DNA of 64,000 bases from Dermatophilaceae bacterium (GCA_014377705.1 JACMPC010000087.1:4932-68931), one strand, 5' to 3'; shown: positions 1 to 27,284, numbered from the stretch's first letter. Translations and numbers: made by a program. The notes: generated from the sequence alone by a model not told the origin.

Positions 1-253
1 GGTCGGCGACCGCCTTCCACAACGCCATCGACAACAAGACATCGCCGGTCAGCCCTGTGGTGGAGCCGCTGTTCGCAGAGTTGCTGTCCGGGGAGTTCAG
101 GGCCGTCTCGTCGAGCAGGTCGAGCTCTGCCCTGCGCTGGTCGCGCCAGGCACCCAGGGCCCCCAGATAGCGCAGCGCATCCTCGGGGGAGATCGCGGAG
201 CCGATGTGTCCCGGCGGTGCCGGGGTGATGGCTGTAGCGGCGGATACGATCAC
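1..253 (-). CDS. Partial CDS (first 84 codons; continues past the window start), unknown function; last visible gene of the telA-to-glnH-like operon
   Basis: Manual minus-strand translation from GTG 253-251 stays open to position 2 (MIVSAATAITPAPPGHIGSAISPEDALRYLGALGAWRDQRRAELDLLDETALNS...). Third codon positions are GC-rich. The start lies 2 nt after the stop (256-258) of the upstream SBP gene. No family recognised. Confidence 0.4.
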   Translation of the reverse strand, partial: MIVSAATAITPAPPGHIGSAISPEDALRYLGALGAWRDQRRAELDLLDETALNSPDSNSANSGSTTGLTGDVLLSMALWKAVAD

Positions 254-255
254 GG

Positions 256-1341
256 TCACCGCCCGTAGACCGCGGTAGGGGGCGCCGGCGCCGGGCCGAG
301 AGGGGCCTTGAGCCAGACGTCGTAGGCCTTCTTCCACTGCCCGTCCGTCCGCATCTGGGCCAGCACGCCGTTGACGAACCGGACGAAATCCGGATGCTTC
401 TGAGACACTCCGAGGCCGTAGGGCTCCACGGTGAACGCGGGAGCCTTGACCACCAGGGCGTAGGGGTCCTGGGCCGCCAGGCCGGCCAGGATGGTGTCGT
501 CACCGGTGATCGCGTCGACCTTGCCCTGCTGGAAGAGCACCAGGCAGCCGGTATGGGTGTCGGAGCCCACCGGGATGAGCCCCTTGAAGGTGCGTAGCTT
601 GTCCATGCTGGTGGACCCGTTGGGGGCACACACCCTCTTGCCCTTGAGCTGGGCGATGTCCTTGACCGGCGACCCCTTGGCGACGAGGACCTTCTGGCCG
701 GCCCGGTAGTACTCGCTGGAGAAGGCGATCTGCTCCCACCGGGCGCAGTTGATGGTCAATGCTCGCGCGACGATGTCGACACCGTCAGCTGACGGGGACT
801 TCGTGGTCGACGGTCCGGTGATCAGGGCGGGGATGCGCTGGGCCGTGGTGATGACCCGGTACTCGATCTTGTTGGGGTCGTTGAAGATGGCCTTCGAGAC
901 CGCCTTGAGCATGTCGATGTCAAAGCCCTCGATCTGGCCGTTGAGCGGGTTCCGCGAGCCCAGCAGCAACGTGTCGGCCGAGACCCCGGCGATCAGCCGG
1001 CCGCGTGCCTGAATGGTGGACATGTAGCTGCCGGCTGGCATCTTCTCGCCCGGCGTCGGGAGCGACGCCGCAGGGGCGAATGACCGTAGGGGGTTGCCGC
1101 AGTTCGCTGATGGCGGAGTTGAGGCGGCCGCCCTGGGGGTGCTGGTGGGGGTGGCCCTGGGCACCGGCGTCGTCGAGTAGACCCCGCTGCCCGAGCAGCC
1201 GCTCACCACCAGGGCGAGTCCGGCGACCATGGAGCCGAGCACCATTCTGGAACGGAGGTGCACTGCTCTGCTGGAACGGAGGTGAACCGTTCTGCTGGGA
1301 CGGGCGTGCACCGCGCTGCCGGTACTGGCGTGCCGCTTCAT
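256..1341 (-). CDS. glnH: Family-3 amino-acid solute-binding lipoprotein, GlnH-like
   Basis: ORF 256..1635 trimmed to ATG 1341 (MKRHAST...), which overlaps the upstream stop as ATGA. A lipobox LVVSGC follows a hydrophobic stretch. The body (GRLIAGVSADTLLLG, IEGFDIDMLKAV, VDAITGDDTILAG) looks like polar amino-acid binding proteins. Confidence 0.8.
   Translation of the reverse strand: MKRHASTGSAVHARPSRTVHLRSSRAVHLRSRMVLGSMVAGLALVVSGCSGSGVYSTTPVPRATPTSTPRAAASTPPSANCGNPLRSFAPAASLPTPGEKMPAGSYMSTIQARGRLIAGVSADTLLLGSRNPLNGQIEGFDIDMLKAVSKAIFNDPNKIEYRVITTAQRIPALITGPSTTKSPSADGVDIVARALTINCARWEQIAFSSEYYRAGQKVLVAKGSPVKDIAQLKGKRVCAPNGSTSMDKLRTFKGLIPVGSDTHTGCLVLFQQGKVDAITGDDTILAGLAAQDPYALVVKAPAFTVEPYGLGVSQKHPDFVRFVNGVLAQMRTDGQWKKAYDVWLKAPLGPAPAPPTAVYGR
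1247..1318 (-). repeat. 3 x 24-bp in-frame tandem repeat inside the signal-peptide n-region of the GlnH-like gene
   Basis: Plus-strand units are ctggaacggaggtgcactgctctg / ctggaacggaggtgaaccgttctg / ctgggacgggcgtgcaccgcgctg. They encode the repeated ...VHARPSRTVHLRSSRAVHLRS... segment. Confidence 0.8.
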
Positions 1342-2693
1342 CGGTACTCCTCCAACCGGAGCGAGACGCCCCACCAGGCCGAGACGGCGGCCGCGATCCC
1401 GATCAGCAAAGAGAGCCAGGCCGCGAACGGGAGCCAGGTCCTGGGCGTGTCCAGGCTGTCGATGGCGATGCGGCTGCTTGAGGTCAATGCCGAGCCGGAG
1501 GCGGCGTCGAAGGCATCGAAGGTGGCGTTCGACGAGGTGGGACCGCTCCCGGTGGCCTGCCTGACTGCGGCCTCCCAACCCCCTCCGTCGTCCGCCTCGC
1601 GGATCTTCTGATGGATGCCGACGTAGGCTTTCCACAGCCCGCCCATGCTCGCGGCATCGCGGTTCAGATCGGCCGAGGTGGCGCTCTGCGTGGCGACGGC
1701 GCCGGACGAGCCCAGCCAGGCCTTCTCGAACTTCGCTCCGGAGCCACGCGCAATCAGGGTCAGGCTCTCGTTCGACTTGGCGTCGAACGCGGCGATCCGT
1801 GCCTTGGCGGTGGCCAGGGTGGCGGCATACGAGCTGTCCCGGACGGTGCCGACCCGTGAACCTACGGACGCGAGCGAGATCGAGCCGATCACCAGGGTCA
1901 GCAGGATCGCCAGGGTGGCGCCGGCCAGCGGGAGGTTGATGTATCTGTGCGTGCGCCGTGACAGCCAGATCATCCCGCCGGTCAGGACCACCAGGGCGAG
2001 CACGCCAAGGACGAGGAAGGTGGCCAATGCACTTTTGGCGGAATCGAACTCGGCGATGACCCGGGTGTCGTTAGCTTTCACCAGGGCATCCAGGATGGGT
2101 AGGGCGTCGCTGCGAAGTCCTGAGCTGGCCACCCGCAGATACTGCGCGCCCACCGGGAGCGCCTGACGGTTGCTGGCGCGTGCCTGTTCGATCAGGCCGC
2201 CGTAGGTGAGCACCGTGTTGTTGAGGGCACCCAGGGCCGCCCCGTCAGCCGGCTGGGCCCTGCCCGCCAGGGCGATCAGCTTCGAGGCCTGCGTCATCGA
2301 CGAGGTGTAGCTGGTGCGCTGGCCGGCGGGCTCCAGGCCGCCGACCAGGAATGCGTTGGTGGCGTCGGCATCGGCCCGGACCAGATTGGTGTGAATAGCC
2401 TGGATCCGGACCAGCTGTGCGGCGTTCTCGCCGGCTCGGCGTAGTGCGTCGTCGGCGGACCCGAAGGTCGAGAAGGCACCGACGGCAAAGATCAGGGACA
2501 CCGCGACGGCCGCCAGGGTGAGGATCCGCAGCTGCCCGGGGGTTCCTGACAGGGCGCGCCGGGCGGAGGTCCTGATGTCGCTGACCCGCCCGGCGACCGT
2601 GGGCACACCGGTCGGCTGGCGCGAAGCGGTGAGGCCTGCGTCGGGAGTCTGGGTCGAGCTGGGTGTGTGGTTCGCGCTGGTCGTCTGGCTCAC
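1338..2693 (-). CDS. glnX: Four-TM membrane protein with two ~145-aa extracytoplasmic helical domains, GlnX-like
   Basis: 451-aa ORF with four hydrophobic helices at about aa 56-78, 222-245, 254-278 and 420-445. These are separated by two Ala/Leu-rich soluble domains. It sits immediately upstream of, and is ATGA-coupled to, the GlnH-like SBP, as in the mycobacterial glnX-glnH arrangement. Confidence 0.55.
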   Translation of the reverse strand: MSQTTSANHTPSSTQTPDAGLTASRQPTGVPTVAGRVSDIRTSARRALSGTPGQLRILTLAAVAVSLIFAVGAFSTFGSADDALRRAGENAAQLVRIQAIHTNLVRADADATNAFLVGGLEPAGQRTSYTSSMTQASKLIALAGRAQPADGAALGALNNTVLTYGGLIEQARASNRQALPVGAQYLRVASSGLRSDALPILDALVKANDTRVIAEFDSAKSALATFLVLGVLALVVLTGGMIWLSRRTHRYINLPLAGATLAILLTLVIGSISLASVGSRVGTVRDSSYAATLATAKARIAAFDAKSNESLTLIARGSGAKFEKAWLGSSGAVATQSATSADLNRDAASMGGLWKAYVGIHQKIREADDGGGWEAAVRQATGSGPTSSNATFDAFDAASGSALTSSSRIAIDSLDTPRTWLPFAAWLSLLIGIAAAVSAWWGVSLRLEEYR

Positions 2694-4225
2694 GCAGGGC
2701 CTCCCGGCTTGTCCTGGTCTGGGTCAGCGCTTTCGTCCTGGCTTTCGCCCCGGCTTTCGTCCTGGTCGGCGTCCTTGTCCGGGCCCTGGCCTGCTTCGGT
2801 GTCCTGGCCTGCTCCCGTGTCCTTGTCCGGGGGCTGGTTCTCGCCGAGGTCCTGGTCGAGATCCTGGTCGAGGTCCTGGGGCTCCAGCCGGCGCAGCTGG
2901 TCGTGGGTTGGTGCCTCGACATCGCGGAGCCGCCACGCGTGGGCGCCGATCGCAGCCTCGAGCTGGTTGCGGGAGAATCGACCGTTGCCGAAGGACTCGC
3001 CGCGGGGCGTCTGGGCCAGCAGCTCCCGGAACCGTGCCAGCGCCTGCGGGGTGAGCTCGTAGTCGGAGCCCTTCGCCAGCAACGTCAGGATCGTGGCCAG
3101 CTCTTCATCGGTGTAGTCGTCGAACTCGATGATGGTCCGAAACCGGCTGGCGAGGCCGGGATTGGCCGCCACGAACGCCTCCATCGGCGCTGGGTACCCG
3201 GCGACGATCACCACGAGGTCGTCGCGCCGGTCCTCCATCTCCTTGACCAGGGTGTCCACGGCCTCGGTGCCGTACTGGTCGCCGGTCAGGCTGTAGGCCT
3301 CGTCGATGAAGAGCACGCCCCCGGAGGCCGTGCTGACGACCTCCGAGGTCTTGACCGCTGTCTGCCCGAGATAGCCCGCCACCAGCTCGGAGCGGTCGAC
3401 CTCGATCAGCTGGCCTCGCGTCAGCAGCCCGAGCGCCGCGTAGATCCCGCTGACCAGCCGGGCAACCGTCGTCTTGCCGGTGCCGGGGTTGCCGGTGAAC
3501 ACGAGGTGCCGGGTGATCGTGGCGCTCGTCATGCCCGCTGCGGCGCGCAGCCGCTCGACCCGCAGGAGCGCGACCTGACGGTGGATCTCACGTTTGACCC
3601 GCCCCAGGCCGATCAGCGCGTCGAGCTCGGCGAGGAGCTCCTCGACACTCCGGCGCTTCACCGGCTCTGGTGGCACAGCCGCGGGAGCTCTCTCATGGGC
3701 CGCCTCAGGGGCAGGCTCCGGCGAGTTGTCAGAAGCCGCCGGCGAAAAACGATGCCTGTCTTCTGACAACGTGGGAGATGGTGCAGGAGATTGGGTTACG
3801 AGGGACGGCGGTGGTGAGGGGTGGTGGCCGGCGGCTTTGAGCTGGGCGGCCGCAGCGACCGAGGCGTTGCCGATCACCCGCATCGTCGGCTCGCCCAGAT
3901 CGCAGGCTGCCGAAGCCACCTCAGCCATGGCCTTGGCATACGGTCCGCCCAGCGAAGACCCCTGCGCCACGAGGCCGCTCAGGATGGAGGTGGGCGCCCC
4001 ACGCCAGCGCCGACCACGCGAGGCCGCGTCGAAGAAGTCCTGGGTGGTCCCGCCGCCGACGGCTCTGGCCCAGGCGGCGGGCGCACCGGGGGCCGACTCG
4101 GCCACCGCAGCAGCCAGGGCAGCGCCCTCATCCCGCGCCACCTGATCCCGAACCCCGGCCGACTCGGCCACGGCCACCAGGGCATCGAGGGCCTGGTCAA
4201 GTGGCAATGTCGGGGCTGTCGTCAT
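2690..4225 (-). CDS. AAA+ ATPase, CbbX/SpoVK/EccA-type, with helical N-domain and acidic disordered C-terminal tail
   Basis: Walker A is GNPGTGKTTVARL and Walker B is GVLFIDEAYSL, followed by VIVAGYP...ASRFRTIIEFDDY. The C-tail is PQDLDQDLDQDLGENQPPDKD...DESADPDQDK. ATGA overlaps at both ends (4222-4225 and 2690-2693). Confidence 0.85.
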   Translation of the reverse strand: MTTAPTLPLDQALDALVAVAESAGVRDQVARDEGAALAAAVAESAPGAPAAWARAVGGGTTQDFFDAASRGRRWRGAPTSILSGLVAQGSSLGGPYAKAMAEVASAACDLGEPTMRVIGNASVAAAAQLKAAGHHPSPPPSLVTQSPAPSPTLSEDRHRFSPAASDNSPEPAPEAAHERAPAAVPPEPVKRRSVEELLAELDALIGLGRVKREIHRQVALLRVERLRAAAGMTSATITRHLVFTGNPGTGKTTVARLVSGIYAALGLLTRGQLIEVDRSELVAGYLGQTAVKTSEVVSTASGGVLFIDEAYSLTGDQYGTEAVDTLVKEMEDRRDDLVVIVAGYPAPMEAFVAANPGLASRFRTIIEFDDYTDEELATILTLLAKGSDYELTPQALARFRELLAQTPRGESFGNGRFSRNQLEAAIGAHAWRLRDVEAPTHDQLRRLEPQDLDQDLDQDLGENQPPDKDTGAGQDTEAGQGPDKDADQDESRGESQDESADPDQDKPGGPA

Positions 4226-4914
4226 GACCCGCCCCGCCCGTCCGGCGGCTCCAGTCGACCAGAACGTCCAGAACCAGAGCTGTCAGAACCGAGGCCTGGA
4301 TATCCAGGCCTCGGTTCTGACGAGTCGGTGGTTGGGGATGATGAAAGTGGCGATGGGGGTGTGGGGTCGGGGGGGATCGTGACGTTCGGACTTAGGGTCA
4401 GGGCACCGCCACCGGAGGCCGTGCCGAACTTCTCGGCCAGGAACCTGCCGTGCGCGACCAGCGCGTCGGCATCGGCACGGCATACCGCGTCGAAGACCTT
4501 GTCCATCGTGGCGGCCAGCAGGTCGAGCTGGTCGATCAGGATCATCAGGGAGGTCTTGCCACGGTCGACCGGGCGGCTGTCGGCGAACTGGCGTGGCAGG
4601 CGCAGGTAACCGCCGACCGCCTCAGGCAGGTAGTCGGTCGCCGTGGCCATGACGTTGTAGGCCTGCAGGCTGCCGGCGCCCAGGGTAGACAACCGCGGGA
4701 CGGTGTCGCGCACGGTCCGGGAGACCCGGCCAACCCGTGAGGCCACCGGAGCGGGCACCGCACCTGCGGCCACCATCGCCTCCACCCGGTCACAGGCCGC
4801 GAGCAGGTCGTCGCTGGTAGGGACTTTCGGCAGCACGAGGCGCTCGGGCTCGCGGCGGCGGCGGCCTGTCATCCGTGCGAAGAGCTCGCTCAGCTCCATG
4901 GTGTCGATTCTCAC
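4222..4914 (-). CDS. Hypothetical protein, possibly an XpaC-like partner of TelA
   Basis: 230-aa ORF with GTG 4914 preceded by aaggg, starting 19 nt after the TelA stop. The central region (ATDYLPEAVGGYLRLPRQFAD...LLAATMDKV) resembles the C-terminal part of XpaC-type proteins found next to TelA in Firmicutes. The C-tail is Pro/Ser-rich. Confidence 0.45.
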   Translation of the reverse strand: MRIDTMELSELFARMTGRRRREPERLVLPKVPTSDDLLAACDRVEAMVAAGAVPAPVASRVGRVSRTVRDTVPRLSTLGAGSLQAYNVMATATDYLPEAVGGYLRLPRQFADSRPVDRGKTSLMILIDQLDLLAATMDKVFDAVCRADADALVAHGRFLAEKFGTASGGGALTLSPNVTIPPDPTPPSPLSSSPTTDSSEPRPGYPGLGSDSSGSGRSGRLEPPDGRGGS

Positions 4915-4933
4915 CCGGACCCTTCAGTCGCCG

Positions 4934-6190
4934 TCAGCGACCGGCGCGGTCGGCGCCGCCCAGATCGAGGGAGCCGCCGCTGACCCGCTGGTCCTGGCGC
5001 TCGACCCGGTCGAGATAGTCGCGGGACTTGCCGACCTCGGTCTCCAGCGTGCCGATCGTGGCGGCCATGGTGTCCAGCGCCTTGACCTTGAAGGTGTCGA
5101 TCGCGTCCATGGTGGCGTAGATGTTCGCGAACGCGGCCTGTAGCTGCGGCAGGCCGATCGTGGCCGAGGCCGCCTGTTGCTGGATGGCCACCGAGTTGTC
5201 GCGAAGCATCTCCGAGGTGCGCTCGATCAGGCCGGACGTGGTGGTGTTCAGGGCGGTGATCTGGCTGAGCACGAGCTTCTGGTTGCCGAGCGCCTGGGCC
5301 ACGATGACAGCTGTTCGCAACGCGGAGATCGTGGTGGTGGACGCGCGGTCGACCCCCTTGATCAGCTCGATGTTGTTCTTGATGACGATGTCGATGGCCA
5401 GGTAGTTCTGGATCGACACGGCCAGCTGGACGAGCAGATCCTGGTGCTTCTGGCGAACGTAGAAAAGCACGTCCTCCCGCATCGCCTTGGCCTTCTCGGG
5501 ATCATTGGCGTCAAGGTCGGAGACCGCGGCAGACATGCGGGAGTCGAGCCGTTCGGCGACGTACACGTACTGGTTGAGCCGGCCCATCGCCTCCCACAGC
5601 TGCTGCTTCTCGAGGTTGAGTGCGCCGTTGTCCTTGCCCAGCTCGTCCTGGCCGTCGCGCAGCGCGTGAAGGATCGCGTCGAGGTGGCTCTCGGCGCTCT
5701 GGTACTTCTGGAAGTAGTCGTTCACCCTGTCGCCGAACGGGATCATGCCCAGAAACTTCTTGGCGCCGGTGGCCGCCTTGGGGTCAAGGTCCTCGACCGT
5801 CCGGCGCAGCTCGAGCAGGGTGGACCCGACCTTGGAGCCCTCCGACAGCCCACCCTCCTGCAGCGCCTTGACCGGCGACTTCAGCAGCCGGTTGGAGCTC
5901 TCGGCCGCGCGCAGGATGTCGTCGTCTCCCATGGTGCGCACGTCGGTGGCCTTGGCGGTGAACTCGGGGGAGCGAGGAGCGGCGGCCATCAACGATGCGA
6001 GGTAGCCGTCGACCTTGGCGTCCAGCCCGGGCAGGGCGGCGGCATCCACGGCAGGCGCCATCCGGGGTGCGGCGGTGGCGGCCACCGGCAGGGGCGGGGC
6101 CGGCGCCGTCAGGGTCAGCACGGACTCGGCCGCCAGCGGCGGCTGGGGCGGCTGGCCGGCTGGCTGACTCGACATACCCGGTTCTGTCAT
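4934..6190 (-). CDS. telA: TelA-family toxic anion resistance protein
   Basis: ORF 4934..6289 trimmed to ATG 6190 (MTEPGMSS...), which has GAGGGA 5 nt upstream. Long coiled-coil-like TelA-type sequence follows (LLELRRTVEDLDP, FQKYQSAESHLDAILHAL, NLEKQQLWEAMGRLNQYVYVAE, NIELIKGVDRASTTTISALRTAV). Confidence 0.8.
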   Translation of the reverse strand: MTEPGMSSQPAGQPPQPPLAAESVLTLTAPAPPLPVAATAAPRMAPAVDAAALPGLDAKVDGYLASLMAAAPRSPEFTAKATDVRTMGDDDILRAAESSNRLLKSPVKALQEGGLSEGSKVGSTLLELRRTVEDLDPKAATGAKKFLGMIPFGDRVNDYFQKYQSAESHLDAILHALRDGQDELGKDNGALNLEKQQLWEAMGRLNQYVYVAERLDSRMSAAVSDLDANDPEKAKAMREDVLFYVRQKHQDLLVQLAVSIQNYLAIDIVIKNNIELIKGVDRASTTTISALRTAVIVAQALGNQKLVLSQITALNTTTSGLIERTSEMLRDNSVAIQQQAASATIGLPQLQAAFANIYATMDAIDTFKVKALDTMAATIGTLETEVGKSRDYLDRVERQDQRVSGGSLDLGGADRAGR

Positions 6191-6343
6191 CGCTGTCCCT
6201 CTTCTGTGCGAATCTGTCTGTGGCGAAGTGGCACACGTGCCCACACCCCTGTTGACGTTTGGCCAATCTACGCGGTTCCTGTCTCTCACGCCGAGGCATC
6301 CACCTGACTTACGCTGATGCCTTCACCTGACACCATGAGTGAC

Positions 6344-6916
6344 ATGCGGATGTTCATTGCCCTGCCCCTGCCAGAAGCTGTCAACGAGCACCTGGCCGAG
6401 TACCTCGAGCCGCGCCAGGAGGCGGGGCCCGACCTGCGCTGGACCGTTTCGGAACAATGGCACCTCACCCTGGGGTTCCTGCCCGAGGTGACCGACCGGA
6501 CCCTGGATGAGCTGCACGAGCGTCTTGCCCGGGCCACCTCGCGGCGCCAGCCGATGTGGCTGCGGCTGGCAGGGGCGGGAGCGTTTCCGAATGCCGCCCA
6601 GGCGAAGGTCCTGTGGGCAGGAGTCGAGCACGACGGGGAAGAGCTGATGAGGCTCGCCGGCGGGGTCCGTGCGGCCGGGGCGAAGTCCGGGATTGAGGTG
6701 GGCGGGGGACGCTACCACCCGCACCTGACCGTCGCCCGCCTGTCGCAGGCCGCTGACGTCACCCGATGGCTTCGGACGCTCGACCCGTATGTCGGCCCGT
6801 CCTGGCAGGCCGGCGAGGTCGAGCTGATCGCCTCCTACCTTGGGCAGGGCCGGGGCGGCACGTCCCGTTATGAGGTGCGTGAGACGTTCCCGCTGGGTCC
6901 GCCTAGCATTGGCTAG
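6344..6916 (+). CDS. thpR: RNA 2',3'-cyclic phosphodiesterase (2H phosphoesterase, LigT/ThpR)
   Basis: Two HxT motifs are present (WHLTLGFL and HPHLTVARL). The MRMFIALPLP start is typical of the family. In-frame ATGs at 6317 and 6335 are alternative starts. Confidence 0.8.
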   Translation: MRMFIALPLPEAVNEHLAEYLEPRQEAGPDLRWTVSEQWHLTLGFLPEVTDRTLDELHERLARATSRRQPMWLRLAGAGAFPNAAQAKVLWAGVEHDGEELMRLAGGVRAAGAKSGIEVGGGRYHPHLTVARLSQAADVTRWLRTLDPYVGPSWQAGEVELIASYLGQGRGGTSRYEVRETFPLGPPSIG

Positions 6917-6919
6917 ACC

Positions 6920-8572
6920 ATGGCAGAACTCAGTGCGGCGCCGCAGCGGGCGCTCCAAAGGCTCGGGTGTGAGCTTCTGCGGCTAGGTCGGACGATTCGG
7001 CGGCCCAGCTGCGAAGGCTTCCGCAACTGGCGTTGGCGACGGTGGCTCACCCGCGGGGCGGAGCTTCTTGTCCTGGTCTTTGCGGTCAGCCTGGGCGGGG
7101 TCAGCGCGACCAGCCTGTTCCCGACCACCGTGCAGACCGACCACTACCGGGCTGACGTGCGGCTCTCGGCGCTGCCGTCCTTCACCTCCACGATCCACAG
7201 CCCGACGTCGTTCGGTGATCTCGATCTCGAGTTCGACAGCCCCCTCCTGGCGCCCGGGGTCGACGCGACCGTTCAGGTCCGTGACTCCATCACCGCGCTG
7301 TTCGACGACCGGCGGGTATCTATCGAGTCCCTGCAGCCGTCCACCGCCGAGATCACGGAGGCGCTGGGCACGGGGGTCCTGGAGCTGGGCCTGAAGTTCG
7401 CCGGTGGTGTCCTGGTCGTGGGGGTCGGCGCGATCGCCCTGATCGCCTACGGGCGCCGTCGTCGTCCCACCGTCCGCCAGGCCGTGTCCGTGACCATGGC
7501 GGCACTGCTGGCAATCGGTGGTGCCGGGGCCGGGATGCTGGGGACCTATCAGCCCGCCCAGTTCACCAGCTTCCGGACGACCGGTCTGCTGGGCACGGTC
7601 CGAAGCAACACGGGGCTGCTGGCCGGTGTCGAGGCACGCGCCCAGCAGGTCACCCCGTACGTGACGAACCTGCTGGCACTCTCTGCCGCCCTGCAGTCGA
7701 AGTTCATCCCCGAGGACATCAGCAAACCGTCGGCCGCCCGCCTGCTCCTGGTCTCGGACATCCACGGCGCCAACCAGTACCCGGTCATGAAGCGGATCGT
7801 CGCGGACGAGAAGATCACCGCTGTCATCGACTCGGGCGACCTGCTGAACCTGGGCAGCGTCACCGAGGCCGAGCTGGCCGGGATCTTCACCTCCATCAGG
7901 AACCTCGGGGTGCCGTACATCTTCGTGCGCGGCAACCATGACGCGAGCAGTCCCTCCGACCAGGCGTTGCTGCGACGAATGGCCACGATCCCGAACGTCG
8001 TGCTGCTCGAGCCGACCCCGCAGACCTACACCGAGGCCGGCGTGAACGGGCTGGTCATCGCGGGGTTCAACGACCCGCGGTACTTCGGTGACGACGACAA
8101 GGAGAACAACAAGAAGCAGGAGCCCGCCGCCAAGGCGTTCAACAAGGCTTTCGCCGACCGGGCACGCCCGGACATTGTGGTCACCCACGAGCCGGCGGCG
8201 GCAAGGATGGTCGACTCCGCGTCCCTGCTGGTCAACGGCCACATGCACAAGGACGAGCTGGAGGGCAACCGGATCGGTGTCGGCACCTTCACCGGCGGCG
8301 GAACGCTGACCCACTTCCTGGTCGACAAGCAGGGAGATCAGCCCGGTGAGCTGGCCGGCCAGCCCTATGCCTTCGACATCGTCGTGTTCGGGCAGGGCTG
8401 CGACCTGACGTCTCTGACCCGGTACACCTACCGCAACCTGATCCAGGGCAGGCCCGTCTATGACGACGTCAGCGTCATCAACGGCAAGACCATCGCTACT
8501 CCCGCACCGGGCAGAAGGAACTGCGCGGCCGACCTGGGAATGAGCAGCACGACCGTTACTGTCGGGGGATGA
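6920..8572 (+). CDS. Membrane-anchored calcineurin-like metallophosphoesterase
   Basis: N-terminal TM segments are followed by the motifs LLVSDIHG, DSGDLLNLG, VRGNHD and NGHMHKD. The gene starts 3 nt after the thpR stop. Confidence 0.8.
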   Translation: MAELSAAPQRALQRLGCELLRLGRTIRRPSCEGFRNWRWRRWLTRGAELLVLVFAVSLGGVSATSLFPTTVQTDHYRADVRLSALPSFTSTIHSPTSFGDLDLEFDSPLLAPGVDATVQVRDSITALFDDRRVSIESLQPSTAEITEALGTGVLELGLKFAGGVLVVGVGAIALIAYGRRRRPTVRQAVSVTMAALLAIGGAGAGMLGTYQPAQFTSFRTTGLLGTVRSNTGLLAGVEARAQQVTPYVTNLLALSAALQSKFIPEDISKPSAARLLLVSDIHGANQYPVMKRIVADEKITAVIDSGDLLNLGSVTEAELAGIFTSIRNLGVPYIFVRGNHDASSPSDQALLRRMATIPNVVLLEPTPQTYTEAGVNGLVIAGFNDPRYFGDDDKENNKKQEPAAKAFNKAFADRARPDIVVTHEPAAARMVDSASLLVNGHMHKDELEGNRIGVGTFTGGGTLTHFLVDKQGDQPGELAGQPYAFDIVVFGQGCDLTSLTRYTYRNLIQGRPVYDDVSVINGKTIATPAPGRRNCAADLGMSSTTVTVGG

Positions 8573-16730: not shown

Positions 16731-17666
16731 ATGATCCAGACGATGACCCAGACCGCACTGCTTCGCGAGCTCGACCAGGTGGTGGTCGGCGAGCTCGACC
16801 GGCACGAGAAGGTCGCCAGGGAGTGGTTCCCGCACGAGTACGTCCCGTGGAGTGACGGTCGCAGCTTCGACGGGTTGATGGGCGGCGATGCGTGGAGCGA
16901 GAGCGACGCCGAGATCTCGGATGTGGCCCGCTCGGCGCTGATCGTCAACCTGCTCACCGAGGACAACCTCCCGAGCTACCACCACGAGATCGCCCTGATC
17001 TTCGGCCGGGACGCCGCGTGGGGGGAGTGGGTGCACCGCTGGACGGCCGAGGAGGGCCGGCACGCGATCGCGATGCGCGACTACATGCTGGTCACCCGGA
17101 TGGTGGATCCCGTTGCGCTGGAACGCTTCCGGATGCAGCACATGTCTGCGGGCTACGAGTCGGCGCACTCCGGTGAGCTGATGGGCTCGCTCGCCTACGT
17201 CTCCTTCCAGGAGCTTGCCACCCGGGTCTCGCACCGCAATACCGGCAAGTTCACCAAGGACCCGATGTGCGAACGGCTTCTCAGCCGGATTGCCGCGGAC
17301 GAGAACCTGCACATGATCTTCTACCGCAACCTGATGGACGCGGCCCTGCAGATCTCACCGGACCAGGCCATGGTCGCCATCCTGGATGTCGTGAAGAACT
17401 TCGAGATGCCCGGCGCCGGCATCCCCGGATTCCAGCGCAAGTCCGTCGAGATGGCCGTCGCGGGGATCTACGACCTGCGCCAGCACAAAGACGAGGTGCT
17501 TGACCCGGTGCTGCGCTTCTGGAAGGTCTTCGAGCTCGAGGGGCTGTCCAGAGAGGGTGAGATCGCGCGCACAGAGCTGGCAGGGTTCATGGAGGGACTG
17601 GAGAAGGCGGCGCTGCGGTTCGAGGACAAGCGAGACATGCTCAGAGATCGTATGGCGCTCCGCTGA
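16731..17666 (+). CDS. Acyl-ACP (stearoyl-ACP-type) desaturase, di-iron
   Basis: Di-iron ligand motifs are present (LLTEDNLPSYH, WTAEEGRHAIAMRDY, SFQELATRVSH, ADENLHMIFY). Resembles mycobacterial DesA1/DesA2-type proteins. Confidence 0.85.
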   Translation: MIQTMTQTALLRELDQVVVGELDRHEKVAREWFPHEYVPWSDGRSFDGLMGGDAWSESDAEISDVARSALIVNLLTEDNLPSYHHEIALIFGRDAAWGEWVHRWTAEEGRHAIAMRDYMLVTRMVDPVALERFRMQHMSAGYESAHSGELMGSLAYVSFQELATRVSHRNTGKFTKDPMCERLLSRIAADENLHMIFYRNLMDAALQISPDQAMVAILDVVKNFEMPGAGIPGFQRKSVEMAVAGIYDLRQHKDEVLDPVLRFWKVFELEGLSREGEIARTELAGFMEGLEKAALRFEDKRDMLRDRMALR

Positions 17667-20526: not shown

Positions 20527-21288
20527 TCAGGTGCGGCCCCTCACTCGACGCGTCAGGTCCGTGGCGGTCCGGATGACCTGATCGACGATGGCTTGTCGCT
20601 GGCCGGCTGCCACCTCTGCAGCGGGGTAGGTGACAGCGATTCCGGCGACCGGATGCCCGGTGTGGTCCAGGACCGGCGCGGCCACGGAGGCGAAGTCGGG
20701 CGTCACCGTGCCGTCCTCCAGCGCGAAGCCGTCCCGGCGGACCCTGGACAGCGCAGCCCGCAGCGCAGGCAGAGTTCTCGGACCTACGCCATGACGCTGG
20801 ACGAAGGCGTCGCGTGAGGGGAAGAGGGCCCGAACCTGCTGTGGCGGAAGCGAGCCCAGCATCGCCAGGCCGCTTGCGGTGAGCTGCGAGGGAAGGCGCA
20901 CGCCCACGTCGGTGACCAGTGGCGGCCGCCCGGGTGCCCGTTCCTCGATGACGTAGAGGACGTCGCGACCGTGCAGCACGGCGAGGTGGGCGTTGTGCCG
21001 GGTGACGTCCACCAGATGGACCAGCAGCTGACGGGCGAGGCGCTGCAACGGCGCCTGCCGGCTGTAGGCAGATCCCAGCTCGAACGCCGCGACGCCGAGG
21101 CCGTAACGCCGTTCGTCCGCCAGATGCACCACGAAACCCTGGTCGGCCAGGACTGTGAGCAGGTGATAAACGGTGGACCGGGGCAGGTCGAGGTCGCGGG
21201 CGATGGCGGACGCCGGGACGGGCTCGGTATGCCGTGCCAGCAGTCGCAGGACCGCCAGCGCCTGGCTCGCGGCGGGGGCGTTGGCCAT
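20527..21288 (-). CDS. IclR-family transcriptional regulator, divergent from hutH
   Basis: N-terminal wHTH (ALAVLRLLARHTEPVPASAIARDLDLPRSTVYHLLTVL) and a C-terminal IclR effector domain (FALEDGTVTPDFASVAAPV). Confidence 0.85.
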   Translation of the reverse strand: MANAPAASQALAVLRLLARHTEPVPASAIARDLDLPRSTVYHLLTVLADQGFVVHLADERRYGLGVAAFELGSAYSRQAPLQRLARQLLVHLVDVTRHNAHLAVLHGRDVLYVIEERAPGRPPLVTDVGVRLPSQLTASGLAMLGSLPPQQVRALFPSRDAFVQRHGVGPRTLPALRAALSRVRRDGFALEDGTVTPDFASVAAPVLDHTGHPVAGIAVTYPAAEVAAGQRQAIVDQVIRTATDLTRRVRGRT

Positions 21289-21367
21289 GGATCTAGTATC
21301 TCAGATCCGAGACACTAACCACAGGTGGGGGATGGTTGACCGGTCGCCGGTGCGTTCCAATGAACTT

Positions 21368-22963
21368 ATGACATCAGCCCACCCCACCACCAGCCAGCTG
21401 GCCTGCGATGCCGACAGGATCAAGGCCGGACCGATCACTGTCGGCATCGGCCCGCTGTCCTTCGATGACGTGGTGGCTGTTGCCCGCCACGATGCGCGCA
21501 TCGAGATCACCCCCGGCGCGCTCGGGGAGATTCGTGCGAGCCGGAGCATCATCGAGGCGCTGGCGGATGACGTCGAGCCGCACTACGGGGTCTCGACCGG
21601 CTTCGGCGCGCTGGCGACGAAACACATCGCTGCGGACATGCGCGCGCAGCTGCAGCGCAGCCTGGTTCGCAGCCACGCAGCCGGTTCTGGTCCCGAGGTC
21701 GAGCGCGAGGTCATCCGCGCCCTCATGCTGTTGCGACTGTCGACGCTGAGCACCGGTCGCACCGGTGTGCGTGAGGAGACAGCGGCGGCGTACGCGGCAA
21801 TGCTGAACGCCGGGATCACCCCCGTGGTCCACGAGTACGGCAGCCTCGGCTGCTCGGGTGACCTCGCGCCGCTGGCCCACTGTGCCCTGGCTGCGATGGG
21901 TGAGGGACCCGTCCGCGACTCCACCGGCGAGCTGCTCTCTGCCGCCGACGCGCTGAGGGCGGCGGGGATCACCCCGGTCGCGTTGCGCGAGAAGGAGGGC
22001 CTCGCCCTGATCAACGGCACCGACGGCATGCTCGGCATGCTCGTTCTGGCCATCACCGACCTGCGCAACCTGCTCAAGATCGCCGACCTCACCGCGGCGA
22101 TGAGCGTTGAGGGGCTGCTCGGCACCGACGCCGTATTCGCGGCCGACCTCCAGGCCCTGCGTCCGCACCCCGGCCAGGCCTCGGCGGCCGGCAACATCTG
22201 CGCGATCCTGGCCGGAAGCCCGATCCGGGCCAGCCATGACAACGAGGGCTGCACGCGGGTCCAGGACGCGTACTCGCTGCGCTGCGCGCCGCAGGTGGCC
22301 GGCGCCGCCCGAGACACCGTCGAGCACGCGGCAGTGGTTGCCGGCCGCGAGCTGGCCGCCGCGGTGGACAACCCCGTGATCACCCTTGACGGCCGGGTGG
22401 AGTCCAACGGCAACTTCCACGGCGCCCCGGTGGCCTACGTGCTGGACTTTCTGGCCATCGTCGCCGCAGACGTGGCGAGCATGTCCGAGCGCCGGACGGA
22501 CCGTTTCCTGGACGTGGCTCGCAACCACGGCCTCAACGCGTTCCTGGCCGACGATCCCGGTGTCGACTCCGGGCACATGATCGCGCAGTACACCTCGGCG
22601 GGGATCGTCTCAGAGATGAAGCGGCTCGCCGTCCCGGCTAGCGTCGACTCGATCCCCAGCTCGGCGATGCAGGAGGACCATGTGTCGATGGGCTGGGCGG
22701 GAGCGCGCAAGCTGCGCAGGTCCGTCGACGGCCTGACCCGGGTGCTGGCGGTCGAGCTGCTGACGGCGGCACGCGGAATACAGCTCCGGGCCCCGCTGGA
22801 GCCGTCGGCCGCCACCGGCGCGGTGATCAAGGCGCTGCGCGAGGTCACGCAGGGGCCGGGCGTTGACCGGTTCATGGCCCCCGAGATCGAGGCGACGGTC
22901 CAGTTCGTCGCCACCGGGGAGGCCCTGCGCGCTGTCGAGTCCGTCACCGGACCACTGAGCTGA
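21368..22963 (+). CDS. hutH: Histidine ammonia-lyase
   Basis: Contains the MIO-forming GSLGCSGDLAPLAH motif plus NGTDGMLG and QDAYSLRC. The track ORF is trimmed to ATG 21368, because the upstream part overlaps the iclR gene and is non-homologous. Confidence 0.95.
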   Translation: MTSAHPTTSQLACDADRIKAGPITVGIGPLSFDDVVAVARHDARIEITPGALGEIRASRSIIEALADDVEPHYGVSTGFGALATKHIAADMRAQLQRSLVRSHAAGSGPEVEREVIRALMLLRLSTLSTGRTGVREETAAAYAAMLNAGITPVVHEYGSLGCSGDLAPLAHCALAAMGEGPVRDSTGELLSAADALRAAGITPVALREKEGLALINGTDGMLGMLVLAITDLRNLLKIADLTAAMSVEGLLGTDAVFAADLQALRPHPGQASAAGNICAILAGSPIRASHDNEGCTRVQDAYSLRCAPQVAGAARDTVEHAAVVAGRELAAAVDNPVITLDGRVESNGNFHGAPVAYVLDFLAIVAADVASMSERRTDRFLDVARNHGLNAFLADDPGVDSGHMIAQYTSAGIVSEMKRLAVPASVDSIPSSAMQEDHVSMGWAGARKLRRSVDGLTRVLAVELLTAARGIQLRAPLEPSAATGAVIKALREVTQGPGVDRFMAPEIEATVQFVATGEALRAVESVTGPLS

Positions 22964-23025
22964 ACGCAAACCACGAGCTGAACGTGAACCACGAGCTGAC
23001 AACCGAACCACCGAGCTGACAACCC
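22951..23025 (+). repeat. About 18-19-bp tandem repeat (x4) that begins at the hutH stop codon
   Basis: Copies of accac(t/g/c)gagctga start at 22951, 22970, 22988 and 23007. Each carries a TGA (22961, 22979, 22997, 23017), and the first is the hutH stop. Confidence 0.8.
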
Positions 23026-23094
23026 AGGATCAACCAGATCTGACATCGAACCAGTCTTCTCTCAGCAGTACGTTCTCTAGCAAGGAGATTTGTC

Positions 23095-24750
23095 ATGGAA
23101 GGCGCCCGCCCAGTCCGCGCACCCCGAGGCACGACCCTGACCGCCAGGTCGTGGACCACCGAGGCCCCCTTGCGGATGCTGATGAACAACCTCGACCCCG
23201 AGAACGCCGAGCGCCCCGACGACCTCGTCGTCTACGGCGGCACCGGCAAGGCGGCCCGCGACTGGAAGTCGTTCGACGCGATGGTCCGCACCCTGACCAC
23301 GCTGGAGAAGGACGAGACCATGCTGGTCCAGTCCGGCCGGCCGGTCGGCGTGATGCGCACCCACGAGTGGGCGCCGCGGGTGATCATCGCCAACAGCAAC
23401 CTCGTGGGTGACTGGGCGAACTGGCCCGAGTTCCGCAGGCTCGAGCACCTGGGCCTGACCATGTATGGCCAGATGACGGCCGGGTCGTGGATCTACATCG
23501 GAACCCAGGGCATCCTTCAGGGCACCCATGAGACCTTCGCCGCAGTGGCCGACAAACGCTTCGGCGGCACCCTGGCAGGCACGCTGACCCTGACCGGTGG
23601 TGCCGGGGGGATGGGTGGCGCCCAGCCGCTGGCAGTGACCATGAACGACGGTGTCTGCCTGCTCGTGGACGTCGACGGGACGCATCTGCAGCGGCAGGTG
23701 GACCACCGCTACCTCGACGTGATCGCCTCGGACCTCGACGATGCCGTGGCCCGGTGCCTGGCCGCCAAGCGCGACCGCCGGGCGCTCTCCGTGGGCCTGG
23801 TTGGCAACTGCGCCACCGTCGTCCCCGAGCTGCTGCGCCGCGGGGTCGAGATCGACATCGTCACCGACCAGACCAGCGCGCACGACCCGCTGTCCTACCT
23901 GCCCGAAGGCGTCGAGGTGGCCGGCTGGCACGACTACGCCGAGGCCAAGCCCGAGGAGTTCACCGACCGGGCCCGCACGTCGATGGCCAGGCACGTGAAG
24001 GCCATGGTCGAGTTCCAGGAGGGTGGGGCGGAGGTGTTCGACTACGGCAACTCGATCCGCACCGAGGCCCAGCTGGGCGGCTATGAAAGGGCTTTCGAGT
24101 TCCCGGGGTTCGTGCCGGCATACATCCGTCCGCTGTTCTGCGCGGGCAAGGGCCCGTTCCGCTGGGCCGCGCTCTCGGGCAACCCGCAGGACATCTACAA
24201 GACGGACCAGGCGCTCCTGGACCTGTTCCCGGACAACGACCGGCTGCAGAAGTGGATCCGCGGGGCGCGCGAGAAGATCGCCTTCCAGGGCCTGCCTGCC
24301 CGTATCTGCTGGCTAGGCTACGGCGAACGTGACAAGGCCGGCCTGAAGTTTAACGAGATGGTCGCCTCGGGCGAGCTGGAGGCGCCGATCGTGATCGGTC
24401 GCGACCACCTCGACGCCGGGTCCGTGGCCTCGCCGTACCGCGAGACCGAGTCCATGGCTGACGGCTCGGACGCCATCGCCGACTGGCCGTTGCTGAACGC
24501 CCTGATCAACACCGCCTCCGGCGCGACGTGGGTCTCGATCCACCACGGCGGCGGCGTCGGCATCGGCCGCTCGATTCACGCTGGTCAGGTGTCTGTGGCC
24601 GACGGCACCGCGCTGGCCGCCGAGAAGCTGGCCCGTGTGCTGACCAACGACCCGGGGATGGGAGTGATTCGTCATGTGGATGCGGGCTACGACATTGCCG
24701 ATCGGGTCGCGACCGAACGTGGCGTCAGGGTCCCGATGCGGGAAGCTTGA
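23095..24750 (+). CDS. hutU: Urocanate hydratase
   Basis: 551 aa with typical urocanase sequence ([36 protein letters not shown]). An AAGGAG RBS lies upstream. Confidence 0.95.
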
Positions 24751-24753
24751 GAG

Positions 24754-25944: not shown

Positions 25945-27284
25945 GCCCGGTGGATGTCACGTCAGAGGCCCGGCGATGGTGGGCGGCCTACGCGCTGCTT
26001 CGGACTGGCCTGGCGCGTGACGTGACCTTCGAGGTCACCGGGGGCCGGTTCACCGCGGTAACGGCGAACACCGTGCCCGGTGATGCGCAGAGACTGCCCG
26101 GGGTGGTGCTGCCCGGGCTGGCGAACGCGCACAGCCACGCCTTTCATCGTGCGCTGCGCGGGCGGACCCATGACGGCGGTGGCACCTTCTGGACCTGGCG
26201 TGAGCGGATGTATGCCGTTGCCGCACAGCTGGATCCGGACTCCTACCTCGCACTGGCCACCGCCACGTACGCCGAGATGGCGCTTGCCGGAGTCACCGCC
26301 GTCGGCGAGTTCCACTACCTGCACCACGCTCCCGGAGGGATGCCGTACGACGACCCCAACGCCATGGGTGAGGCCCTGCGACAGGCCGCGTCGGATGCCG
26401 GGATCCGGCTGACCCTGCTCGACACCTGCTACCTCGCCGGGGGGTTGAGTCCCGCCGGGCACGAGGCGCTGGACGACGTGCAGCGGCGATTTGGCGATGG
26501 CCATGCCGACCGGTGGGCGCGTCGCGTTGCGGACCTCAACGAGTCCGCCGGGATGCGGGTGGGGGTTGCGGTTCACTCGGTGAGGGCAGTACCTCGCGAT
26601 CAGCTCGGCGTCGTCGCGGAAGCCTCGGCCGGCCGGCCGCTGCACGTCCACCTCTCCGAGCAGCCGGCCGAGAACCAGTCGTGTGAGGGGTTCTACGGCC
26701 TGACTCCCACCGCCTTGCTCGACGGTGAAGGGCTGCTGGGCCGCGCGACCACCGCCATTCATGCGACGCACCTGAGCGAGGCGGACATCGCCATGCTGGG
26801 CGACACCCACACGACGGCCTGCCTCTGCCCCACCACGGAGCGGGATCTGGCCGATGGCATCGGCCCTGCCCGCAGGTTGTCCCATGCGGGCTCGCCGCTG
26901 TCCCTCGGCTCCGACCAGCACGCCGTCATCGACCTGTTGGAGGAGGCGCGGGCCCTGGAGATGCATGAGCGGCTGGGGTCGTTGCGGCGCGGACGTTTCA
27001 GCCAGGACGAGCTGCTGTCGGCCGCCACCCGGCATGAGTGCCTGGGCTGGCTCGATGCCGGCAGGCTCGAGGCCGGGTCGCGCGCCGATCTGGTGGCCGT
27101 TCGACTCGACACTCCCAGGACGGCCGGGAGCGCGCCGGGTCAGATCGTGTTGTCGGCAACGGCGGCCGACGTTGACACAGTGATCGTGGATGGCAAAGCG
27201 GTGGTGGTCGGCGGCCAGCACCAGCTGGGCGATGTTGGTGGGTTGCTGCAAGAGGCGATTCAGCCACTCTGGGAGAACTCATGA
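25941..27284 (+). CDS. hutF: Formimidoylglutamate deiminase
   Basis: Amidohydrolase-superfamily motifs are present ([41 protein letters not shown]). The start is ATG 25941, overlapping the upstream stop as ATGA. The longer track ORF is an Arg-rich out-of-context extension. Confidence 0.85.

Follow-up and report, generated by a model that had tools for sequence, protein, structure and literature searches.

Does an operon that joins an extracytoplasmic amino-acid sensor to a TelA protein and an AAA+ ATPase encode one signalling system, and if so, what connects its two ends? This question is raised by the first 6190 nt of a 64,000-nt stretch of DNA from a Dermatophilaceae bacterium (GCA_014377705.1, JACMPC010000087.1:4932-68931; from here: the window). 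Six open reading frames (ORFs) run there head-to-tail on the minus strand in the order TelA, a small protein called here p230, an AAA+ ATPase, a GlnX-family membrane protein, a GlnH-like solute-binding protein (SBP) and the start of a sixth gene, p419. TelA has been an enigma for decades. GlnH and GlnX form a trio with the kinase PknG in Mycobacterium and Corynebacterium, where the substrate is GarA/OdhI, and the PknG literature up to a July 2026 preprint describes only a "3-gene operon".

An earlier note, made from the sequence alone, had placed all six ORFs at the positions at which our ORF map finds them (Table 1). It had taken them for a six-gene operon without PknG that encodes one machine, in which ligand sensing is relayed by a membrane transducer to an AAA+/TelA effector. 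Here we report that the locus is very probably part of a conserved ten-gene unit that includes PknG. On balance, this unit probably constitutes one extended PknG phospho-signalling system, with the TelA/AAA+ membrane module among its outputs.

The operon has ten genes and includes PknG

The locus was extended beyond the window by an exact-protein look-up of the SBP, which led to metagenome contigs from this strain or one very close to it. One of these contigs (L001) differs from the window at 5 of ~1900 positions, a contig-end artefact excluded, and continues downstream of the SBP with p419, PknG, a PP2C phosphatase, a von Willebrand factor A (vWA) protein and a Zn-ribbon protein. With the forkhead-associated (FHA) domain of the last protein included, the operon order is TelA - p230 - AAA+ - GlnX - GlnH - p419 - PknG - PP2C - vWA - ZnRibbon-FHA. 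The six genes recognized earlier are the first part of this series, in which PknG, PP2C, vWA and Zn-ribbon-FHA come after p419. That the sixth gene is not PknG was correctly seen; the conclusion that the locus lacks PknG was wrong, as a full PknG is encoded by the seventh gene and overlaps the sixth by 4 nt. The earlier note had named a PknG in sixth position as the result that would speak against its reading. Literally this is not what we found, yet PknG belongs to the operon.

TelA is the first gene of the unit because a divergent LigT-like gene lies upstream. Of the three ATGA overlaps described earlier, those leading from p230 into AAA+ and from GlnX into GlnH are present, while the overlap from AAA+ into GlnX reads GTGA. 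Instead of a 2-nt gap between GlnH and p419 there is most likely a GTGA overlap with a GTG start at position 259, because this start is called in L001 and gives the spacing most often seen in relatives (-4 in 56 of 76 loci). The gap between TelA and p230 is probably 34 nt rather than 19 nt, with p230 starting at ATG 4899, because its database homologues open with MELSELF. Gaps of 54-83 nt separate PknG from PP2C, PP2C from vWA and vWA from FHA in this strain (L001). No terminator-like site was found on the operon strand in the window part or in the complete operon of a close relative, and positions 1-7000 of the window contain neither a sigma-70 consensus promoter nor a terminator-like site.

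Gene order is conserved across two actinobacterial orders

The ten operon proteins were compared by tblastn with 80 related loci, which had been obtained with an alignment of p419 relatives from a collection of 185,579 species represented by one genome each; a further 286 matches were left out. In 80 of 80 loci, from at least five families, the genes are colinear on one strand up to the limit of each contig, and the gene arrangement is hence not due to chance. Of the 49 loci with enough flank, 48 have the full set of ten genes, colinear and on one strand. These belong to the Dermatophilaceae, Dermacoccaceae, Nocardioidaceae, Kribbellaceae and Propionibacteriaceae of the orders Micrococcales and Propionibacteriales, and include Dermatophilaceae such as Phycicoccus, Pedococcus and Ornithinibacter as well as Luteipulveratus, Nocardioides, Marmoricola, Microlunatus, Enemella, members of the Kribbellaceae and other Propionibacteriaceae. 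Identities to the window proteins go down to 34-50%; TelA is 67-92% and vWA 46-94% identical.

According to heuristic start calls, the 4-nt overlap is the commonest spacing at the junctions p230-AAA, AAA-GlnX, GlnH-p419, p419-PknG and PknG-PP2C, and the spacing between GlnH and p419 is -4 or -1 in 91% of loci. As colinearity and overlaps recur across loci, TelA/p230/AAA are truly syntenic with glnX-glnH. This was the key test put forward in the earlier note, and it is borne out by the 48 full-length loci from two orders.

Several metagenome-assembled genomes (MAGs) have two loci matching the operon (L027/L068, L055/L070, L057/L066, L044/L046 and L017/L019). Both contigs are complete or nearly so in L027/L068, L055/L070 and L044/L046, L066 ends at PP2C, and L017 carries only p419 and PknG before its contig ends. 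Such MAGs may have true paralogous systems with different inputs or may be mixed-strain bins. In Enemella evansiae (L078:14800-17400), a large ORF of ~715-773 aa occupies the place of vWA and FHA.

The sensor pair is related to GlnX and GlnH

The fourth gene product matches the NCBIfam model NF058618, "GlnX family signal transduction membrane protein", with 300.6 bits against a cut-off of 250, its residues 50-451 covering model positions 2-413 of 413. For a protein identical to it, a precomputed match to Pfam PF28326 (Sensor_actino) exists. The wider GlnX family is hence already known, NF058618 and PF28326 having recently been modelled by NCBI and Pfam curators. With NF041460, the equivalog model of PknG-activating GlnX, the protein scores 108 bits against a cut-off of 780, and it is 25% identical over its full length to the classic GlnX of Tsukamurella. 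Four hydrophobic segments (residues 57-75, 226-244, 256-274 and 421-439) agree with the four-transmembrane (4-TM) topology noted before, with two predicted extracytoplasmic loops of ~145 aa each between them. In all loci the SBP gene follows GlnX directly, and PknG lies two genes further down.

The SBP matches SBP_bac_3 and has the lipobox LVVSGC. Its best match in the PDB is GlnH of Mycobacterium tuberculosis (6H2T, E 1.6e-58), the next family following at 1.7e-32. With the roles of the ligand-contact residues of this GlnH taken from PMC6069109, the residues binding the amino and carboxyl groups are kept (S164, here Thr, R169 and D250), and so is R147. Among the side-chain contacts, T162 is replaced by Ala and W232 by His, and both changes are conserved in the family. 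The GlnH-like SBP very probably binds an amino acid, judging from these residues.

One could suppose that the SBP and the 4-TM protein are part of an amino-acid uptake system and that the other genes are unrelated to them. The SBP does match SBP models of ATP-binding cassette (ABC) transporters for Glu/Asp, Arg and Lys in NCBIfam, all below cut-off. However, none of the loci has a gene for an ABC permease or ATPase in or beside the operon, the 4-TM protein is a GlnX-family transducer and not a permease, and the closest solved relative of the SBP is the sensor GlnH. We regard an uptake system as very improbable indeed.

The kinase core combines PknG with a phosphatase, a vWA protein and an FHA protein

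The 419-residue protein p419 has no match in Pfam or NCBIfam. It belongs to a small family with 395 representatives in 1.84 billion clusters at 50% identity and is represented in Micrococcales, Propionibacteriales and a few Mycobacteriales MAGs. In the 80 related loci p419 always lies between GlnH and PknG as far as the contigs extend. Its AlphaFold2 (AF2) model has a predicted local distance difference test (pLDDT) score of 66, and a Foldseek search of this fold against the PDB returned only generic helical-bundle noise (best E 0.69). Comparisons of p419 or p230 with TelA, GlnX, AAA+, vWA, PknG and each other by hhalign gave probabilities below 1% throughout, revealing no hidden paralogy. Domain fusions of p419 were considered as Rosetta stones and dismissed; the long cases look like mis-called or frameshifted genes joining fragments of SBP or PknG. 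In other forms of the operon, the corresponding proteins of ~410 aa are 33-38% identical to each other and have an ~80-aa C-terminal domain in common with p419 (hhalign 89-93%). Because these proteins are homologous to p419, a helical protein just 5′ of PknG is a constant partner of the kinase; p419 homologues precede PknG even in forms without GlnX and GlnH.

The PknG protein of 743 aa matches PF16919 PknG_rubred (2.3e-25), PF00069 Pkinase (1.3e-27) and PF16918 PknG_TPR (1.5e-54), and aligns with PknG of M. tuberculosis (2PZI) with 460 bits over residues 90-739. In L001, gene 8 encodes a Zn-ribbon-PP2C phosphatase and gene 9 a vWA protein with VWA_3_C. Gene 10 encodes a double Zn ribbon (DZR), with an FHA domain at the end in full-length relatives. 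A Zn ribbon of the form CxxPGCxGxxxxxGxCDxCG is found at the N-terminus of PknG, PP2C and the FHA protein in extended operons. At the N-terminus of their PknG proteins, a single or double Zn ribbon precedes a Ser/Thr-rich tract (L001:3035-3110; L092, L093, L094, L095), whereas the classic PknG of Tsukamurella has no Zn ribbon. The catalytic motifs of kinase, PP2C and AAA+ are intact; the vWA protein has conserved its metal-ion-dependent adhesion site (MIDAS) motif DTSGS and a Thr-rich C-terminus (LDTASTKTTR), and the FHA domain its motifs GR...SRRQ...NGT.

Over its full length, the vWA protein matches PDB 4FX5 (Caci_2163 of Catenulispora acidiphila, E 2.7e-116), of which it is by sequence the orthologue. 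The tripartite structure of 4FX5, with vWA, beta-sandwich and four-helix bundle, is described by Hoffmann et al. as that of a paralogue of Sulfolobus ArnB (PMC6509490). The best PDB matches of the Zn-ribbon-FHA protein include ArnA (5A8I, E 2.6e-4, a weak match) and GarA. As far as domain composition tells, the vWA and Zn-ribbon-FHA proteins have the architecture of archaeal ArnB and ArnA. In Sulfolobus, the Zn finger of ArnA binds ArnB, and ArnC phosphorylates ArnB in its C-terminal domain, thus exposing an FHA-binding surface; a loose Zn-finger complex is thereby converted into a tight FHA-bound complex in a nutrient-dependent manner (PMC12852372).

Operon forms are nested

In Tsukamurella (Mycobacteriales), the classic three genes glnX-glnH-pknG lie beside NUDIX and thiE. 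Seven overlapping genes, GlnX - SBP - ~410-aa helical protein - PknG - PP2C - vWA - FHA, without TelA/p230/AAA, are found in Catenulispora subtropica and on a 2-Mb contig. A Pseudonocardiaceae MAG has five genes (434-aa protein - PknG - PP2C - vWA - FHA) and no sensor pair, and in Actinophytocola oryzae PknG - PP2C - vWA - FHA stand at the start of a contig. The forms of the operon are nested, with three genes in Mycobacteriales, seven in Catenulispora and relatives and ten in the lineage studied here. The AAA+ ATPase was seen in no form other than the ten-gene one.

These forms bear on the possibility that the locus is the known glnX-glnH-pknG nutrient module, acting on 2-oxoglutarate dehydrogenase via a GarA/OdhI-type FHA protein encoded elsewhere, and that independent TelA and PP2C/vWA/FHA cassettes are cotranscribed with it. 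The classic trio has clear homologues here in the kinase, the SBP and the membrane protein, the TelA block is absent from the seven-gene form, and TelA-p230 also occurs alone elsewhere. In addition, thiE, clpB and dnaK within the same 64 kb resemble the surroundings of pknG in M. tuberculosis, judged by Rv numbering, and this argues for a true PknG orthologue. Several observations do not fit independent cassettes, however. Ten genes are colinear in 48 of 49 loci from Micrococcales and Propionibacteriales despite identities down to 34-50%, and start/stop overlaps span the block boundaries AAA-GlnX and PknG-PP2C in most loci. Moreover, PknG differs from the classic form by the N-terminal Zn ribbon that is also found on the PP2C and FHA proteins, and the extra p419 gene lies between glnH and pknG in every extended operon. 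We therefore consider cotranscribed but independent cassettes rather unlikely.

TelA has a partner that does not match the XpaC model

TelA matches PF05816 with 308.5 bits against a cut-off of 30 (E 7e-92; model positions 6-332 of 332), and no solved structure matching it by sequence was found. Its neighbour p230 has no match in Pfam (E <= 0.1) or NCBIfam. The protein consists of a helical-bundle core at residues ~29-158 with the motif DYLPEAxGGYLRLPR...GKTSLMxLIDQLDLL...HGRFLxEKFG (alignments and AF2), followed by a disordered Pro/Ser linker and a C-terminal peptide that is conserved as GRLxPPxGxGxP or, in Propionibacteriales, as (S/N)xLDLP; its N-terminus looks like an amphipathic helix. The AF2 model has a pLDDT of 60.6, and Foldseek against the PDB returned only generic helical-bundle noise (best E 0.16).

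The earlier note had likened p230 to XpaC. Proteins of the XpaC family have an N-terminal TM anchor. There is no hydrophobic TM segment in p230, none of eight diverse members matches PF10112 at E <= 10, and a homologue from Nonomuraea does not match it at E <= 0.01. Because of these negative Pfam scans, the likeness to XpaC is not upheld. The p230 core is instead related to the C-terminal domain of a 206-aa protein of Nonomuraea gerenzanensis (hhalign 98.4%, E 7e-15); a membrane anchor at the N-terminus, which p230 lacks, is present in the homologues from Nonomuraea and Sphaerotilus. In Nonomuraea (L088:13854-17201), TelA is followed by an SBP_bac_11-vWA fusion and then by the membrane-anchored p230-like protein. 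A Sphaerotilus plasmid (L091:2857-6387) has the equivalent triad with overlapping genes, annotated by the Prokaryotic Genome Annotation Pipeline (PGAP) as TelA, "vWA domain-containing protein" and "hypothetical protein"; a p230-like gene also occurs on a Deinococcus plasmid (H40). Because of the triads in Nonomuraea and Sphaerotilus, TelA, vWA and the p230 domain form a recurrent cross-phylum module. The ten-gene operon holds the three together and adds the AAA+ ATPase. The p230 gene adjoins TelA in every ten-gene locus whose contig extends there, and in the triads. By family and position, p230 is a bona fide TelA partner, of another family than XpaC or a very distant one.

In Firmicutes, the targets of TelA and XpaC are the architecture of membrane phospholipids and resistance to daptomycin; the xpaC-telA pair of Enterococcus faecium controls how daptomycin binds and where phospholipid microdomains localise (PMC6811118). 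A membrane or envelope role of TelA fits in with this role of the E. faecium pair.

A neighbour of TelA in Bacillus was considered as XpaC and rejected, because the PLSDB record shows a DUF3974 membrane protein, and there is no second TelA there. In this locus of Bacillus sp. N5-665 (L087:2719-4740), a TelA paralogue precedes a membrane protein of 277 aa, the N-terminal half of which is DUF3974. This protein has no similarity to p230 detectable by hhalign and is yet another kind of TelA-adjacent partner.

A palindrome (Table 1) lies in the linker-coding part of p230, ~60 nt 5′ of the AAA+ start, and encodes SEPRPGYPGLGSD whichever strand is read. It is the only one of its kind in the window, with a chance expectation of 0 in the repeat search. 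No comparable palindrome was found in the matching region of the 80 related loci, in which the longest arm is 8 nt, and the palindrome is specific to this lineage. In close metagenomic relatives, the encoded peptide occurs in degenerate versions. A small palindromic element may have been inserted here in frame, or the palindrome may form a hairpin in the mRNA before the AAA+ gene.

The AAA+ ATPase forms a separate subfamily

The AAA+ protein begins with a unique domain of ~135 aa, continues with a disordered linker and a single ATPase module (residues 191-453), in which the Walker A motif GNPGTGKTT and the Walker B motif VLFIDEAY are conserved, and ends in an acidic tail. Its best NCBIfam models are SpoVK, EccA and CbbX (226-261 bits, all under the equivalog cut-offs), and its best PDB matches EccA1 (9LUR, 5e-57) and CbbX (3SYK, 6e-56). 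As no equivalog cut-off is reached, it represents a separate subfamily in the CbbX/SpoVK/EccA clade. The earlier assignments of TelA, of the CbbX/SpoVK-type AAA+ protein, of the GlnX-like protein and of the family-3 SBP all hold in searches of Pfam, NCBIfam and PDB. Presumably, the client of the AAA+ protein is TelA/p230 and not Rubisco or substrates of a type VII secretion system (T7SS). The tail, encoded at 2700-2870 of the window, is long, acidic and of low complexity (DLDQDLDQDLGENQ...DKDADQDESRGESQDESADPDQDK), and its length and sequence vary among relatives.

The operon has a core-chromosome setting

Table 1 Positions of the operon genes and of other features. Coordinates are those of the window unless a contig is named
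Feature	Position	Strand	Remarks
Gene 1, TelA	4934..6190	-	418 aa, cytoplasmic, all-helical; Pfam PF05816
Gene 2, p230	4222..4899	-	225-230 aa; alternative GTG start 4914; TelA partner
Gene 3, AAA+ ATPase	2690..4225	-	511 aa; AAA + AAA_lid_6
Gene 4, GlnX-family transducer	1338..2693	-	451 aa; NCBIfam NF058618
Gene 5, GlnH-like lipoprotein	256..1341	-	361 aa; SBP_bac_3
Gene 6, p419 (N-terminal 86 codons only)	1..259	-	rest and genes 7-10 outside the window
p419, full gene	L001:1779-3038		419 aa, all-helical, cytoplasmic
Palindrome	4282..4321		perfect, 40 nt (20 + 20, no spacer); arms GTCAGAACCGAGGCCTGGAT and ATCCAGGCCTCGGTTCTGAC
Intergenic stretch 5′ of TelA	6191..6316		presumed operon promoter region; common to the divergent LigT-like gene
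LigT-like gene	6317-6916	+	LigT_PEase Pfam match; divergent from TelA
Thiamine pyrophosphate (TPP) riboswitch	35849-35953	+	Rfam RF00059, 63.7 bits; upstream of ORF 35640-36734 and the ECF-type transporter fusion
Energy-coupling factor (ECF)-type transporter fusion	36715-39339		ABC_tran x2 + CbiQ; downstream of the TPP riboswitch
thiE homologue	53298-53900	-	

The rest of the window is core chromosome, with genes for pyruvate phosphate dikinase, hutH/hutU/hutI-type proteins, a dehydrogenase E1 component, dnaK, clpB and a thiE homologue. The upstream flank of the operon (LigT-like gene, metallophosphoesterase, alpha/beta hydrolase, acyltransferase-like ORF) is common only to the five closest relatives (L009, L012, L013, L018, L019). 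Local synteny with the thi/NUDIX flank of Mycobacteriales is weak and consists only of the thiE homologue ~47 kb away.

Another possibility is that the operon is a biological-conflict system of the Ter/TelA or TerY-P type, directed against phages or xenobiotics, in which a vWA-PP2C-kinase switch triggers a membrane response by TelA. The TerY-P triad consists of a vWA protein, PP2C and a Ser/Thr kinase with a C-terminal Zn ribbon, was associated with Ter/TelA by Anantharaman et al. and is linked to tellurite resistance and, when it stands alone, to phage defence (PMC10542128). TelA/Ter proteins were proposed to form sub-membrane structures that block the entry of phages or xenobiotics (PMC7824862), and some MAGs have two diverged copies of the operon (L027/L068, L055/L070 and L057/L066, of which L066 ends at PP2C). 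Against this stand the absence of a specific PADLOC model match, with only generic kinase and AAA matches obtained, and the conserved location on the core chromosome, with an upstream flank common to the five closest relatives. This setting and the lack of a defence-model match argue for a housekeeping system passed on vertically and not for a mobile defence island. Moreover, the components are highly conserved, their distribution over the sampled families looks vertical and not patchy, the sensor, an orthologue of GlnH, is an SBP of the amino-acid type, and no nuclease or other toxic effector is encoded. A conflict system is thus quite improbable.

About 15 kb from the operon, at 21173-27284 (+), genes for an aromatic amino acid lyase of the HutH type, a urocanase and an amidohydrolase are found. 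If these genes form a hut pathway, the glutamate that it yields may be suggestive near GlnH/PknG; coincidence is possible as well. An Rfam match to the small RNA ASdes (17052-17119, minus strand, 65 bits) lies antisense inside ORF 16731-17666 (+).

Proposed mechanism

We propose the following sequence of events for the extended PknG phospho-signalling system. The GlnH lipoprotein would bind an extracytoplasmic amino acid, probably an acidic one, although the specificity residues differ from the Asp/Glu type. Ligand-bound GlnH would alter the conformation of the 4-TM protein GlnX, which would act on the TPR-bearing PknG, probably via the helical adaptor p419. PknG would phosphorylate Thr/Ser sites, and PP2C would remove these phosphate marks. 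The vWA hub and the Zn-ribbon-FHA protein may read the marks as a switch resembling ArnB/ArnA, with the common N-terminal Zn ribbon docking the kinase, the phosphatase and the FHA reader on the vWA hub. TelA-p230, a putative sub-membrane module of the envelope-stress type, would be the lineage-specific output or part of it, assembled or disassembled by its dedicated CbbX/EccA-type AAA+ ATPase.

The chain from sensor to transducer to AAA+/TelA effector in the earlier note is in part retained in this proposal. One single system is a reasonable idea because TelA/p230/AAA are colinear with glnX-glnH in 48 loci, but that chain omitted the core of kinase, phosphatase, FHA and vWA proteins, which is the most conserved part.

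Several points weigh against our interpretation. Each functional step is drawn from domain content and analogy, and the individual steps are less certain than the functional unit as a whole. Two of the three Asp/Glu side-chain contacts of M. tuberculosis GlnH are altered, and specificity for Asp/Glu cannot be assumed. The likeness of the FHA protein to ArnA is weak in sequence (E ~2e-4), and GarA scores equally well. The models of p230 and p419 are of moderate confidence and have no fold match, and it is from their positions that the roles of partner and adaptor are deduced. Because TelA-p230-AAA is missing from the seven-gene form, it is a separable cassette that could merely be co-expressed. 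The gaps of 54-83 nt at PknG/PP2C, PP2C/vWA and vWA/FHA could provide room for internal promoters. Finally, the Enemella evansiae locus (L078) lacks vWA and FHA after PP2C, as the sole exception among the 49 well-flanked loci.

A more far-reaching idea is possible, if doubtful. The ancestral PknG system would have been not the three-gene nutrient sensor of Mycobacterium and Corynebacterium but a self-contained phospho-switch, composed of helical adaptor, PknG, PP2C, ArnB-like vWA hub and ArnA-like reader, which in Micrococcales and Propionibacteriales directly drives a sub-membrane TelA/p230 assembly, remodelled by its AAA+ ATPase, on an extracytoplasmic amino-acid signal. The operon of Mycobacteriales would be a reduced derivative, with GarA/OdhI as its surviving FHA partner. 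If this were true, an upstream signal and a regulator would for the first time be defined for TelA, and the FHA-vWA switches of bacteria and archaea would have a common origin.

Significance

The earlier note knew of no description of this gene combination, and neither did our literature search find one. No paper combining PknG with TelA or "toxic anion resistance" was found in the full-text literature, which did not cover a 2012 comparative-genomics survey of Ter/TelA that possibly shows a related neighbourhood. When PknG was combined with von Willebrand, PP2C or FHA, nothing came up except unrelated papers and one general survey, from 2005, of domain architectures in kinases.

To our knowledge, and as the field itself states, an interaction between GlnX and PknG has never been demonstrated. 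The extended operons offer candidates for the missing parts between the two: besides a dedicated helical adaptor, these are the cognate PP2C and the FHA/vWA pair of readers, for which a solved orthologue exists in 4FX5. TelA shares its operon with a sensor, with a kinase and a phosphatase and with an AAA+ protein of its own, and many of the genes overlap by 4 bases; this suggests phospho-regulated TelA assemblies that are remodelled with ATP. Both questions can be tested in culturable, non-pathogenic actinobacteria such as Pedococcus, Nocardioides, Microlunatus, Enemella, Luteipulveratus and Catenulispora. The locus moreover connects the ArnA/ArnB switch of archaea with a counterpart in bacteria and suggests that PknG, the virulence kinase of M. 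tuberculosis, descends from or relates to a much larger machine. It is thus of interest for work on PknG, on TelA and on FHA/vWA signalling.

Comparison with known systems

The closest known system is GlnH-GlnX-PknG of Mycobacterium and Corynebacterium. The three proteins occur in the same relative order, the SBP is nearest to M. tuberculosis GlnH, the 4-TM protein passes the GlnX-family model, and the kinase, with rubredoxin, kinase and PknG_TPR domains, aligns end to end with M. tuberculosis PknG. Unlike the classic trio, the operon described here contains seven additional genes, among them its own PP2C, vWA and FHA genes and the TelA/p230/AAA+ block. A 419-aa helical protein is encoded between glnH and pknG, and PknG bears an extra N-terminal Zn ribbon. 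GlnX stays below the cut-off of the PknG-activating equivalog, and two Asp/Glu-specific contacts of GlnH are altered.

With XpaC-TelA of Firmicutes, known from envelope stress and from daptomycin and nisin tolerance, the locus has in common a small helical protein encoded beside TelA, and the p230 homologues of other phyla, with membrane anchor and C-terminal domain, have the architecture of XpaC. By contrast, p230 itself has no PF10112 match and no TM segment, and TelA precedes its partner here whereas the known cluster is named xpaC-telA. The AAA+ ATPase resembles CbbX, SpoVK and EccA in its single classical AAA module with AAA_lid_6 (~195 bits to the EccA1 and CbbX structures) but differs from them in its unique N-domain, which is not the TPR domain of EccA, and in its acidic tail.

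The consecutive genes PknG-PP2C-vWA, their association with TelA and the Zn ribbons in the module are reminiscent of the TerY-P triad. However, the kinase is of the PknG type, with an N-terminal instead of a C-terminal Zn ribbon and a TPR domain at its C-terminus, the operon also encodes an FHA reader and a sensor pair, and there are neither TerB/C/D genes nor a PADLOC match.

Compared with ArnA-ArnB of Sulfolobus, the system described here is bacterial, with all genes in one operon and an output other than the archaellum. Its kinase is a PknG with an extracytoplasmic sensor, its phosphatase is PP2C and not PP2A, the Zn ribbon is also present on kinase and phosphatase, and the sequence similarity to ArnA is marginal (E ~2e-4). 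Alike in both systems are the pairing of a vWA protein with a protein that has an N-terminal Zn finger and a C-terminal FHA domain, a tripartite fold as in the ArnB paralogue, predicted here by homology from the 4FX5 orthologue, and a Hanks-type kinase and a Ser/Thr phosphatase alongside (ArnC/ArnD and PP2A in Sulfolobus). By analogy, switching here may likewise depend on nutrients.

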